From the NCBI GenBank assembly GCA_965247095.1, contig OZ251997.1:3360001-3424000 (forward strand): a stretch of DNA of 64,000 bases. Direction: 5' to 3'. This DNA is from Candidatus Multivorans sp. (lineage in GTDB: Bacteria; Acidobacteriota; Thermoanaerobaculia; Multivoradales; Multivoraceae). The position numbers and the translations under genes were made by a program. Under the pieces are notes generated by a model that saw only the letters and a list, made by a program, of their open reading frames with translations, was not told where the DNA came from and did no database searches. Below, in pieces: positions 4,867 to 49,536 of the stretch. Position 1 is the first letter of the stretch. Every line of letters starts with the position of its first letter.

Positions 4867-6399
4867 TCAGGGCGTTCGCTTCCTCGGCGAGGTGACCACG
4901 TACCCTAGCGCCTTCAGCCGCTCCAGTTCCTCCGGTGTGATCTCCGGTTCGCCGCGCTCGGCCAGCAGGGCCGCCCGGTCCACGCCGTTCGCCGACAGCC
5001 AGCGACTCTGCAGGCGGCGTGCGAAGTCGTCTTCGGCGGGAATGGGCTGGACCGTTCCGTCCGCGGACCACTCGAACGACTCGAGTTGAGGCCGGGTCCC
5101 CGGTGCGCCCATCAGCGGTGGGGCTGCCTCGAACTGCCGCTCGAGCCGGGCTACGAGCTCCTCGGGTTCCTCCGCCAGCGGCGCCGGCGGTTCGCCGTCC
5201 GCTAGCGCCAGCATCGCGTCGTAGTAGCGGTCCTCGGCCGGCGCGAATCGGCTCTTCCAGAGCAGTTGGCGCCCCTCCTCGACCAGGGACAGGTGATTTG
5301 TGCCGTTGCCCACGTAGAGCTCCGACAGCGCGCCGGCAGGGCTCGGCTCGAACAGGCTCGGCGGACTGCCCGGCGGCGGCGTCCCTCCCGCGGCCGCGAT
5401 CAGGGTCGAGAAGAGGCGATAGTTGGCGACCACAGGTCCGGGGTCGAGCGGCTGGGTCCAGCCGGCCGGCAGCTTGACGATCAGCGGCACCTCGATCAGC
5501 ACCCGGTGCAGGCTGTTGCCGTGCAGGACCTGGCCGTTCTCGCCGAACTCCTCGCCGTGGTCCGAGGTCACGGCGATCAAGGCGTCGTCGAAGTGCCCGC
5601 TCTCGCGCAGCGCCTCCAGCATGGCGCCGACCTGGGCGTCGGCGTAGGCCGCGTTCAGTTGGTAGAGCTGCCAGGCGCGCTCACGGTGATCCGGGTCGAG
5701 GGGGATGTCCGGATCGGCGAACGGCCTCATCTGCAGGGGCGTGATCCGCTCCGGCAGGTCGTCGCGCGGCGCCGTCAGGCGGTCGAGGTACGGAGCATGG
5801 AGGAGGTAGGGCGCGTGCGGGGGCAGCACGTGCATCCAGACGAACTGGGGTCCCCCGTCCAGGGCGCGGAGAATCTCGGTCACGCGCTCCATCCGGGTCA
5901 CCGGGCCGAAGCGTTCGAAACCGCGAACGTAGCCGAAGGTTTGGGTGAGCCAACTGTTCGAGCGGAAGGCCGCGTTCTGGAAACCCAGATCGCGCAGGAT
6001 CTCCGGCAGGGTCGGCAGGTCGTCCCGGAGACGAGCGCGCGCGCTGTGCCAACTGCCATGCCGCCAGGGTTGCCGTCCGGTGAAGAGCGATGCCATGGAC
6101 GGCACCGTCCAGCTCGAACTCGCAATCGCTGTGCCGGCCCAATCCGCGTCGGTGGCCAGACGGTCGAGGTGCGGCATCAGGCCGCTCCCGACCAGGTCGG
6201 CGCGCAGCGCGTCGACCGTGATCAGGACGATCGGCCCGCGGTGGACCGGCGGCGCTTCGGAGCAGCCGGTGGCCAGGGTCGCGACGGCCAGAACGCCGGC
6301 AGCGATGCGGGTTCCATCCGTGCGCCCGATGACGGGCGCACGGACTGGTTCGCCCGTGGCGCGGAGCGCCACGGGGGTTCCGGCCGGGCGTCGCCTCAT
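4867..6399 (-). CDS. Sulfatase-like hydrolase/transferase (alkaline phosphatase superfamily), probable lipoprotein
   Basis: VLITVDALRAD, SSWTVPSMASLFTG, PPHAPY, TSDHGEEFGE, VPLIVK; LATGC lipobox-like sequence. Confidence 0.85.
   Translation of the reverse strand: MRRRPAGTPVALRATGEPVRAPVIGRTDGTRIAAGVLAVATLATGCSEAPPVHRGPIVLITVDALRADLVGSGLMPHLDRLATDADWAGTAIASSSWTVPSMASLFTGRQPWRHGSWHSARARLRDDLPTLPEILRDLGFQNAAFRSNSWLTQTFGYVRGFERFGPVTRMERVTEILRALDGGPQFVWMHVLPPHAPYLLHAPYLDRLTAPRDDLPERITPLQMRPFADPDIPLDPDHRERAWQLYQLNAAYADAQVGAMLEALRESGHFDDALIAVTSDHGEEFGENGQVLHGNSLHRVLIEVPLIVKLPAGWTQPLDPGPVVANYRLFSTLIAAAGGTPPPGSPPSLFEPSPAGALSELYVGNGTNHLSLVEEGRQLLWKSRFAPAEDRYYDAMLALADGEPPAPLAEEPEELVARLERQFEAAPPLMGAPGTRPQLESFEWSADGTVQPIPAEDDFARRLQSRWLSANGVDRAALLAERGEPEITPEELERLKALGYVVTSPRKRTP
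6308..6381 (-). repeat. Double-hairpin palindromic element (module X), copy in the N-terminus of the sulfatase-like gene
   Basis: Minus strand GGAACCCCCGTGGCGCTCCGCGCCACGGGCGAACCAGTCCGTGCGCCCGTCATCGGGCGCACGGATGGAACCCG aligns with 9794-9864 and 47821-47899. Confidence 0.85.
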
Positions 6400-9110: not shown

Positions 9111-9127
9111 GAGCCAGGGGAGTGAAC

Positions 9128-10261
9128 ATGCAACTCGGCATCCTGGGCCTGCCCAAGGCCGGCAAGACGGCGCTGTTCAATGCGCTCACTGCCTCCCGGC
9201 AGGCGACCGGCAAGTTCCGGGCCTCGAACACCACGAACGTTGGAATCGCCCAGGTACGGGACCGGCGCCTGGAGAAGCTCCGGGATCTCTACCAGCCGCG
9301 GCGCTACGTGCCGGCGCAGGTCCGATGCGTCGATGTTCCCGGCATCGACCGGGGCCGGGGAGAGACCCTGGACCTGGCTGAACTGCGGATGATGGACGCC
9401 CTGGTCCACGTCGTGCGCGCCTTTGAGGACCCGGAACTCCTGCACCCGGCGGGTCGCATCGACCCGCAGCGCGACATCGCCACGATCGATCTGGAGCTGA
9501 TTCTCGCGGACCACGAGGTGGTGGAGCGGCGACTGGAGCGTCTCGATCAGGCGCAGAAGAGAGGCCTCACCGACCTGGAGAAGCGGGAGCGCGCGATGCT
9601 GTCGGACCGCATTCTGCCGGCGCTCGAGGCGGAAACACCGCTGCGCCTCATGGACCTCGACGCGGAGGACGAGAAGCGGCTGCGCGGCTACGGCCTCCTG
9701 TCCCGAAAGCCGATGCTGGTGGTGCTGAATGTCGACGAGGACGTGGCGGGCGACCCCGCTGCGGTGGCCGGGGTCGAAGCGCCGCCCGGGGCCGAACCCG
9801 GGTGGCGCGAAGCCGCGCCAGCCGCGAACCAGTCCGGGCGCTCGTCATCGAGCGCTCGGATGGACCTCCTTGCCGTGAGCGCTTGCCTGGAAGAGGAGAT
9901 CTCCCGTCTCGACCTGGCCGATCAGGGCGACTTCCTGGCCGAAGCGGGACTCGACCAGCCGAGTGCGGTCCGGGTGGTGCAGGCGGGCTACGAGCTGCTG
10001 GGGCTGATCTCCTTCTTCACCGTCGGCGACGACGAGGTCCGCGCGTGGACCATCCGCCGGGGCAGCGCGGCGGTGACCGCGGCGGGCGCCGTTCACTCCG
10101 ACATCGAGCGTGGCTTCATTCGCGCCGAGGTGACCGGGTGGCAGGAACTGATCGACGCCGGATCGCTGGCCGTCTGCCGCGAACGCGCGACCCTGCGCCT
10201 GGAGGGCAAGGGGTACCGTGTGCAGGACGGCGAGGTCGTCCACTTCCGGTTCAACGTGTAG
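9128..10261 (+). CDS. ychF: Redox-regulated ATPase YchF
   Basis: GILGLPKAGKT P-loop, DVPG, HVVRAF, FFTVGDDEVRAWT, IRAEV, LRLEGKGYRVQDGEVVHFRFNV. Confidence 0.95.
   Translation: MQLGILGLPKAGKTALFNALTASRQATGKFRASNTTNVGIAQVRDRRLEKLRDLYQPRRYVPAQVRCVDVPGIDRGRGETLDLAELRMMDALVHVVRAFEDPELLHPAGRIDPQRDIATIDLELILADHEVVERRLERLDQAQKRGLTDLEKRERAMLSDRILPALEAETPLRLMDLDAEDEKRLRGYGLLSRKPMLVVLNVDEDVAGDPAAVAGVEAPPGAEPGWREAAPAANQSGRSSSSARMDLLAVSACLEEEISRLDLADQGDFLAEAGLDQPSAVRVVQAGYELLGLISFFTVGDDEVRAWTIRRGSAAVTAAGAVHSDIERGFIRAEVTGWQELIDAGSLAVCRERATLRLEGKGYRVQDGEVVHFRFNV
9794..9864 (+). repeat. Double-hairpin palindromic element (module X) inserted in-frame in ychF
   Basis: GAACCCGGGTGGCGCGAAGCCGCGCCAGCCGCGAACCAGTCCGGGCGCTCGTCATCGAGCGCTCGGATGGA; encodes EPGWREAAPAANQSGRSSSSARMD. 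Confidence 0.85.
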
Positions 10262-13492: not shown

Positions 13493-13568
13493 TGGTGCCC
13501 AGGGGCGGATTCGAACCACCGACACCCTGATTTTCAGTCAGGTGCTCTACCGACTGAGCTACCTGGGC
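13493..13568 (-). tRNA. tRNA-Phe(GAA)
   Basis: GCCCAGGTAGCTCAGTCGGTAGAGCACCTGACTGAAAATCAGGGTGTCGGTGGTTCGAATCCGCCCCTGGGCACCA: cloverleaf, GAA anticodon, encoded CCA. Confidence 0.98.

Positions 13569-47799: not shown

Positions 47800-47803
<4 letters not shown>
46754..47803 (+). CDS. yejE: ABC transporter permease YejE
   Basis: FKANRRGYWSL, ANDKPL, WLGTDD, LTSLDFLGFGLP, FIGEALRDAFDP. Confidence 0.9.

Positions 47804-49536
<1,733 letters not shown>

Follow-up and report, generated by a model that had tools for sequence, protein, structure and literature searches.

How can a palindromic repeat come to lie within protein-coding genes and be read there in more than one frame? The question is raised by the window analysed here, a stretch of 64,000 nucleotides corresponding to positions 3360001-3424000 of the single contig (C1) of its source genome (G000; 4,617,209 bases, 67.7% G+C). 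The initial annotation of this window had reported three copies of a two-hairpin element of about 70 nt, in the gene ychF, in a sulfatase-like gene and near the start of yejF; these copies do align well with one another, with core matches at 9794-9863 (plus strand), 6314-6381 (minus strand) and 47821-47890 (plus strand). From this alignment and the lines of evidence given below, we propose, with a probability of about 0.8, that the element is a selfish repeat of the repetitive extragenic palindromic (REP)/bacterial interspersed mosaic element (BIME) type, which belongs to a genus of Thermoanaerobaculia (Acidobacteriota), is mobilised by a REP-associated tyrosine transposase (RAYT), and makes in-frame gene insertions that persist under a filter acting on frame and length.

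The family is far larger than the three window copies. With an nhmmer model built from these three copies, the genome gave 161 matches at E≤1e-3, and a second model, built from 154 matches of the first one, returned 172 matches at E≤1e-2 and 159 at E≤1e-7 (approximately one copy per 29 kb). The 70-nt consensus reads GGAAC, C, hairpin 1 (CGGGTGGCGCG atc CGCGCCACCCG), CGAACCAG, hairpin 2 (TCCGTGCGCCCG tcat CGGGCGCACGGA) and TGG, usually followed by (C/A)AC. Both hairpins show compensatory changes: 96.4% of the alignment cells are paired in the stem of hairpin 1 (71 double-change cells) and 95.6% in that of hairpin 2 (62 double-change cells), whereas sliding the 3' partner by one or two columns, which served as control, left 24-65% of the cells paired and 7-18 double-change cells. 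The earlier suggestion that the structure is conserved, rather than the peptide, is therefore well founded. A third small hairpin, GCGGGCRTCYYGCCCGC, continues 76 of the 159 copies (the long form); it occurs 334 times in the genome, as compared to 41 times for the reversed control, and the GG[AC]AC head precedes 204 of these 334 copies. All three types of hairpins have GG(A/C)AC as their foot, and most long-form copies have GGGAAC on the left paired with GGCAC on the right. As different hairpins sharing one head are joined together, they form composites, as in BIMEs. The Rfam scan of the window at the gathering threshold left the element unmatched; its single match is a tRNA gene (13496-13568, minus strand). 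We discarded the possibility of a repeated protein motif, since the majority of the copies lie between genes and each of the six frames is used; no feature supporting an intron- or intein-like removable insert was seen, and no search aimed at it was made.

The copy located in ychF is best documented by its orthologues. This gene, which encodes the ribosome-binding ATPase YchF (9128-10261, plus strand; Pfam MMR_HSR1 and YchF-GTPase_C), probably starts at the ATG at 9128, judging from the N-termini of the orthologues (MQLGILGLPKAGKT). The element occupies 9794-9866 on the plus strand, as a GAAC head (9794-9797) followed by a 69-nt unit (9798-9866) that comprises, in that order, hairpin 1, a GAACC spacer, hairpin 2 and a degenerate right head, GGACC. 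It reads as AEPGWREAAPAANQSGRSSSSARMD (residues 225-248, counted from position 9122) and makes an in-frame insertion of 69 nt, or 23 codons. That this insertion is internal, as first supposed, and missing in orthologues is borne out as follows. First, it is missing in all 18 congeners first searched, where the protein match is split into 2-224 and 248-379; the first piece stops at residues 213-225 and the second one begins at residues 238-249, the two being adjacent. Second, the DNA alignment of ychF shows a 69-nt gap in five relatives. Third, the YchF proteins of distant relatives have about 356 residues, and the Haemophilus influenzae YchF (PDB 1jal) aligns in two blocks (residues 2-208 and 249-379), between which the query has 40 residues where the 1jal chain has 20. 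Fourth, a metagenome contig of 3903 nt (run X12) bears a ychF allele without the element, in which 10 other letters replace 79.

The insert is also present, at the same site, in five closer relatives, where it is either full-length (G049 and G038) or eroded in frame (G044, G048 and G051). The deletion is of 27 nt in G044, and of 57 nt in both G048 and G051, where it took away the left arm of hairpin 1 and some upstream codons; each is a multiple of three. Outside the insert, YchF is highly conserved (99% identity between G000 and G051). The ychF insertion, which is common to six species, appears to be old. An AlphaFold2 model of YchF, obtained with a 17-sequence alignment, was too poor for placing the insert (mean pLDDT, i.e. 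predicted local distance difference test, of 40.3). The metatranscriptome X20 (one run, contigs only) covers both ychF flanks, and none of its contigs bridges the element, so that it is uninformative on transcription through the insert; the RNA contigs covering the element run into other loci.

The other two window copies differ in their relation to the coding sequence, which the initial annotation had made dependent on the choice of start codons. In the gene encoding a sulfatase/alkaline-phosphatase-superfamily lipoprotein (4867-6399, minus strand; Pfam Sulfatase, residues 57-338), which begins with the ATG at 6399-6397 and possesses the lipobox LATGC, the element lies at 6311-6381 on the minus strand, as GGAAC (6381-6377) followed by a 66-nt unit (6376-6311) that also ends with GGAAC. 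It is a 66-nt in-frame insertion, adding 22 residues between MRRRPA and GTRIAAGVLAVATLATGC. The empty site was found both in G049 and in G051, whose left flank shows 100% identity along 96 nt: in these two genomes ATGAGGCGACGCCCGGCC is directly followed by GGAACCCGCATC, and it is at this boundary that G000 possesses the 66 extra nucleotides, with GGAACCC on both sides. The ATG and the region upstream of it are conserved in the relatives with the empty site, and there is no ATG, GTG or TTG between the element and the lipobox, which places the 22 residues in the n-region of the signal peptide. The sulfatase insertion appears to be recent. As for yejF, the long-form copy is at 47821-47931 on the plus strand (core hairpins at 47821-47890 and two further small hairpins at about 47893-47931), between the TGA stop codon of a yejE-like permease gene (47801-47803) and the yejF-like gene encoding a double ABC ATPase (47938-49536, plus strand, with GTG 47938 as its probable start; two Pfam ABC_tran domains and oligo_HPY). 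The genome G016 has an ATG (MTPQPPFLQISDLSVAF) at the position equivalent to GTG 47938, with different repeats upstream, and the sequence upstream of this GTG is not conserved as protein in the G016 comparison (G038 being left out); the codon-usage gene caller also puts the start of yejF at GTG 47938. Hence, the yejF copy is most likely intergenic and untranslated, in an operon spacer. The view of the three window copies as in-frame inserts comparable to the Rickettsia palindromic elements (RPEs) thus holds for ychF and the sulfatase gene, where the N-terminal copy is truly coding, but most likely not for yejF.

Genome-wide, the element mostly lies between genes. The genes were called with a codon log-odds model trained on long open reading frames (ORFs) with the expected GC1>GC2 and a high GC3, which yielded 3371 genes covering 85% of the genome. 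The 159 copies comprise 110 intergenic ones, 25 contained in called genes and 24 that extend across a gene end; random placement would have put about 85% of them inside genes. A Pfam scan covered 23 hosts. The insert has a Pfam domain on either side, or interrupts one, in YchF, UvrD, an MmeI-like restriction-modification enzyme, a hydantoinase, an Lhr helicase, an amidase_3, a prolyl oligopeptidase, an E2 acyltransferase (insert in a linker), GyrA (insert in the C-terminal domain, residues 710-733), a histidine kinase (insert inside HATPase_c) and an Asp/Glu racemase (three tandem copies at residues 96-166). Many of the hosts with a copy in the gene or at its edge act on DNA, namely GyrA, UvrD, Lhr, an AddB-like nuclease, two SNF2 helicases, the MmeI-like enzyme and a MutS-like protein (L014, L015, L021, L024, L029, L031, L189 and L193 in G000), a count that is unadjusted for gene length.

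Several of these insertions can be followed across species. The gyrA insert is common to G000, G049 and G038, and the gyrA match is split at this site, where the insert is missing, in 36 of the 41 other genomes of the genus (G001, G011 and G046 being left aside). At the same site, the gyrA gene of G046 (L146), a genome with no match to the hairpin-2 pattern described below, has a different and shorter extra peptide (ESTGPVGASARPSLG), which could be either an eroded old copy or an unrelated insertion. The uvrD insert is common to G000, G051, G048 and G049, and missing in G016 and G038. The inserts of the histidine kinase and racemase genes are unique to G000 among the five and four relatives, respectively, that returned the gene.

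The copies that remain inside genes are filtered by length. Taken for all 159 copies as the stretch that begins after the left head and includes the right one, the unit is mostly of 68 nt in the intergenic copies, with 23 of 110 lengths being multiples of three and 10 of 110 being equal to 69 nt. The corresponding numbers are 14 and 13 of 30 at gene ends, and 12 and 11 of 19 for the copies lying deep in genes, where the excess over the intergenic copies is significant for both the multiples of three (Fisher test, p=4e-4) and the 69-nt length (p=5e-6), the gene-end set being outside this test. In addition, divergence from the consensus is greater in the deep copies (mean 57.2 vs 65.2 bits, p=5e-4).

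With respect to frame, the sense copies that meet called genes use phases 0, 1 and 2 in 7, 25 and 3 cases, respectively, and antisense frames are used as well. The report of three frames in use stands accordingly, but the absence of stop codons, which had been presented along with it, is a weak argument that we rejected, because 38% of the shuffled versions of the consensus are equally open in all three sense frames. Counted over 148 near-full copies, open sense frames number 129, 138 and 99, and open antisense frames 146, 14 and 145. The independent deep events comprise 14 sense and two antisense insertions (p=0.018 against the 60:40 expected from open frames). The initial statement that the element is always in the sense orientation of its host gene is true for the three window copies, but not for the genome, which has antisense in-gene copies and, in the spacers between co-directional genes, 25 copies with and 26 against the direction of the genes. 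We observed no replication-strand bias, as the best two-arc split of the orientations has a score of 43, a value reached by 15.5% of 200 shuffles; the cumulative GC skew, which goes up along nearly the entire chromosome, shows no usable origin or terminus. The plus strand of G000 has 47,698 more G than C, and the cumulative gene-strand count goes up along most of the chromosome, its minimum being at 0.28 Mb and its maximum at 4.17 Mb, with no symmetric replichores visible.

As a candidate for the mobilising enzyme, the genome encodes a single protein matching Pfam Y1_Tnp (PF01797; 34.9 bits for a cut-off of 23; C1:2898256-2898492, outside the window). The corresponding ORF, of 214 amino acids (C1:2898172-2898813, minus strand), possesses the motifs HVHVLI (histidine-hydrophobic-histidine, HUH) and YIEGNP (tyrosine), both of which align in its best PDB match, the Escherichia coli TnpA-REP protein (4er8, E 1.9e-7); weak matches were obtained with 2xm3 and 2f4f, in line with the Y1 HUH superfamily that it shares with the IS200/IS605 enzymes. 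The initial annotation had thought of an HUH nuclease flanked by the repeats, and there is one: two long-form copies bracket the ORF in inverted orientation, at 2898002-2898081 (plus strand) and 2898904-2898985 (minus strand), an arrangement known as a REPtron. Copies of the element adjoin the RAYT genes of G016, G044, G012 and G000, i.e. four of the 12 loci scanned. We therefore propose that this RAYT is the mobilising enzyme, a proposal that stems from the genomic arrangement and not from a correlation across genomes. The RAYT proteins of G016 (C1:2226319-2226960) and G000 are 99% identical, whereas the YchF and GyrA proteins of the same pair are 95% identical; the RAYT gene may have moved recently between lineages.

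The insertion sites could be read in five pairs of filled and empty alleles, namely those of the sulfatase, ychF, uvrD, histidine kinase and racemase genes. The junctions are CCGGCCGG·AAC·CCGCATC for the sulfatase gene; CACTG·AAC·TCCTT for ychF (read in G049), with GAAC on both sides of the insert; ACGC(G/C)·AAC·GTCTTC for uvrD; GTGCG(A/G)·AAC·CTGGAC for the histidine kinase gene, with AAC on the left and CAC, not AAC, at the right end of the insert; and TTCCTGG·CGCCAC, devoid of AAC, for the racemase gene. In four of these five junctions, the insert occurs at a head-like sequence, either between G and AAC or directly after AAC. The sequence repeated at the junctions varies in length (7, 4, 3 and 3 nt), and its two sides can differ, so that a target duplication of fixed length does not fit. 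The enzymes of the IS200/IS605 family cut next to a short sequence recognised by a guide, and the junctions would fit an enzyme that similarly cuts at the head, both in the donor and in the target.

From these data we propose the following mechanism, in which the element consists of GC-rich hairpins, each following a GG(A/C)AC head. The RAYT, an HUH-Y1 enzyme, would mobilise the element as single-stranded DNA, the mobile unit being the stretch between two heads (hairpin 1, head, hairpin 2, head; 66-69 nt), and this unit would insert at head-like GGAAC or xAAC sequences. The short form would thus be the part of the long form delimited by two heads, and the tandem arrays with a period of 68-69 nt, such as that of the racemase gene, would result from insertions at the right head of an existing copy. 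Most in-gene insertions would be lost. The survivors would keep the frame because five of the six frames are normally open and, in the 69-nt subfamily, the length is divisible by three; they would fall where 22-24 extra hydrophilic residues are tolerated. The shared GGAAC head of the three hairpin types, taken together with the junctions, provides a testable guess at the cut site of the RAYT.

Several points weigh against the proposal of a RAYT-mobilised repeat with in-frame survivors. First, of the 42 genomes of the genus, only G000, G016 (99% identity) and G044 (76%) gave a cognate RAYT (at least 76% identical); in 22 others, the sole match is a paralogue with about 50% identity, and 17 of the 42 have no RAYT match at E≤1e-5. 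Among the latter, G038, G039, G049, G043 and G052 carry 78-121 matches to the hairpin-2 pattern, which means that the copy number does not track the RAYT gene. Second, the score of the RAYT ORF against the NCBIfam model "REP-associated tyrosine transposase" (REP_Tyr_transpos) is 79.8 bits, i.e. 0.2 under the cut-off of 80. Third, the racemase insertion is not beside AAC, and the junctions are ambiguous by 2-7 nt, so that they do not fix the cut site. Fourth, the set of 19 deep copies was chosen by the analyst from the overlaps with called genes; seven of these copies are not multiples of three (they are tandem units, long-form or degenerate copies, or have hosts lacking Pfam support), and all gene counts rest on the crude codon-usage caller, not on a curated annotation. 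Fifth, the inserted peptides are putative products.

Some of these points bear on the explanation that best survives besides ours, in which the element is a MITE (miniature inverted-repeat transposable element) moved by a DDE-type transposase, GGAAC(CC) being a target-site duplication of 5-7 bp and the neighbourhood of the RAYT a coincidence. The GGAACCC flanking both sides of the 66-nt sulfatase insert, and present once at the empty site, would fit such a duplication, as would the GAAC flanking the ychF insert, and a MITE would also account for the high-copy genomes lacking the cognate RAYT. However, the consensus, when read directly, shows no terminal inverted repeats, and the flanking repeat has no fixed length and differs between the two sides of the kinase site (AAC vs CAC), just as the left GGGAAC differs from the right GGCAC in most long-form copies. 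Furthermore, the genome's sole Y1 transposase gene lies directly between two inverted copies, which is unlikely to occur by chance at about one copy per 29 kb. We regard the MITE as improbable.

Another possibility is that the in-gene copies are not translated in working proteins, either because their hosts are dead genes or because the element lies outside the true start and stop codons. For some copies this is the case or is likely to be: the one at yejF probably precedes the start codon, N-terminal copies in general depend on the start codon chosen, and five hosts (L019, L022, L025, L023, which is a sulfatase fragment, and L028) have no or only partial Pfam support. As a general account it is quite improbable, for the following reasons. 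The ychF and gyrA inserts are in the middle of the genes, in frame, and have been kept in six and three species, respectively, while the rest of the proteins is conserved; gyrA has a single match in G000; the later deletions in the ychF insert (27 and 57 nt) are both multiples of three; and the sulfatase gene has a conserved ATG and no alternative start before its lipobox. A role of the repeat for the host, in RNA or DNA (mRNA stabilisation, termination or gyrase binding), with the in-gene copies as by-products, is very improbable: the hairpins are strongly conserved with compensatory changes, the copies in co-directional spacers are closer to the upstream stop (median of 48 nt) than to the next start (96 nt), and such roles of REPs have been proposed (PMC3733652), but the orientation in these spacers is random (25 vs 26), which does not fit a strand-specific RNA role, congeners differ in copy number (0 to 131), and the tRNA is the only Rfam match of the window.

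The selfish repeat that we favour is widespread in the genus. Searched with a 30-nt pattern from hairpin 2 (up to three mismatches), 38 of the 42 genomes of the genus returned matches (0-131 per genome, the source genome having 131), and the reversed control pattern gave no match in any of the 42. When bacteria and archaea were scanned for exact matches, with one genome for each species, at least 108 stretches were returned; among the matches listed (80 of these), almost all are from Candidatus Multivorans sp., or from Thermoanaerobaculia or Acidobacteria metagenome-assembled genomes, with one from a Vicinamibacteraceae, in agreement with the Acidobacteriota host group initially assumed. In G048 (C2:1729708-1730487), at least five tandem copies lie within an open frame of 884 amino acids.

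Copies of the element also occur at the edges of called genes. Eight called genes end with (F)HPCAR followed by the stop codon, the TCAT loop of an antisense copy supplying the TGA. Examples are those for a D-Tyr-tRNA deacylase, a CoA-transferase and an FAD oxidase (L181, L182 and L183); in the deacylase, the Pfam domain ends six residues before the stop of the (F)HPCAR end. At the other side of genes, the ATG of the GGATGG found at the 3' end of the element was taken by the gene caller as a candidate start for nitrile hydratase alpha, PurS and several others (among these copies are C1:2742403-2742472, L191, and C1:3755864-3755933, L192). Such copies mislead gene callers about starts, stops and apparent new domains in the genomes of this group.

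These data provide a clean natural case in which essential proteins of a free-living bacterium would gain 22-24 residues from selfish DNA. Their added value lies in the filled and empty alleles that can be compared side by side, the survival of the gyrA and ychF inserts across species, the length filter for multiples of three and the head-targeting model. Since both types of alleles occur in close relatives, the insertion sites, their age and their erosion can be directly read. A bolder proposal, which we consider doubtful, is that this REP family has a previously unlisted GGAAC head, that the stretch between two heads moves into head-like sites, and that the 69-nt subfamily, open in five frames, is a recurrent source of lineage-specific loops in essential proteins (GyrA, YchF and UvrD), which survive speciation and favour genes of DNA metabolism. 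If this were true, protein insertions would be supplied steadily by RAYT-driven repeats in free-living bacteria, and not only in Rickettsia.

Turning to known systems, the initial suggestion that such a family may be undescribed was too strong. The work of Di Nocera et al. (2013; PMC3733652) reports REPs that are tied to RAYTs and lie in frame inside genes of many bacteria, a number of them in replication and repair genes including that of UvrD, and equates some intragenic REPs with RPEs; repeats fused in frame to genes have also been reviewed by Delihas (2011; PMC3184786). Full-text searches on repeats of the genus, and on REPs in Acidobacteria, returned no description of the present family, a result that covers the main texts and not the supplementary tables of PMC3733652 and PMC6006769, whose entries on REP families and intragenic REPs could hold relatives. 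In biological terms, our finding extends a published pattern and does not open a new one.

The closest system is that of the REPs, BIMEs and REPINs with their RAYT (TnpA-REP). As in this system, the element is made of short GC-rich hairpins with a short conserved head, organised in composite arrays, and the single Y1 HUH gene is flanked by inverted copies, as in a REPtron. The copies are mostly intergenic, with a minority in frame in genes, many of which act in repair or replication, e.g. UvrD, the same bias being reported in PMC3733652. Four differences deserve mention. First, the head is GG(A/C)AC, not the GTAG or CGTC of the two large super-families; as Quentin et al. (2018; PMC6006769) list among the REP types minor classes with atypical feet, some of them in Acidobacteria, this head excludes the two super-families and not the REP kind. 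Second, the common unit consists of two different hairpins in direct, not inverted, order. Third, the host is an uncultured genus of Thermoanaerobaculia. Fourth, the share of copies touching genes is high (49 of 159, by crude gene calls).

The RPEs, reportedly described by Ogata et al. in 2000 and mentioned in both PMC3733652 and PMC3184786, are likewise palindromic in-frame inserts in housekeeping genes, which amount to tens of residues, are read in several frames and are kept across species. The precedent cited in the initial annotation is thus pertinent, in that a mobile palindromic family would add peptides to housekeeping proteins such as YchF and GyrA. We know of no transposase associated with the RPEs, whereas the present genome possesses a RAYT and most copies are intergenic; the unit is of 66-69 nt, as compared to 105-146 nt for RPEs (PMC3184786).

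With the IS200/IS605 elements (IS608 and ISDra2), which transpose as single strands by "peel and paste", the family shares the Y1 HUH superfamily, the subterminal hairpins and, as suggested by four of the five junctions, the insertion beside a short target without a fixed duplication. It differs from them in that the repeat is devoid of a transposase gene and the RAYT gene, present once, is not mobile-looking. The target and right-end sequences are not known to be alike in IS608, whereas they are alike here (both resembling GGAAC). Together, these comparisons show that the element agrees with the REP/RAYT system in every respect tested but the foot and the direct order of the two hairpins: the family is new, and its kind is known.

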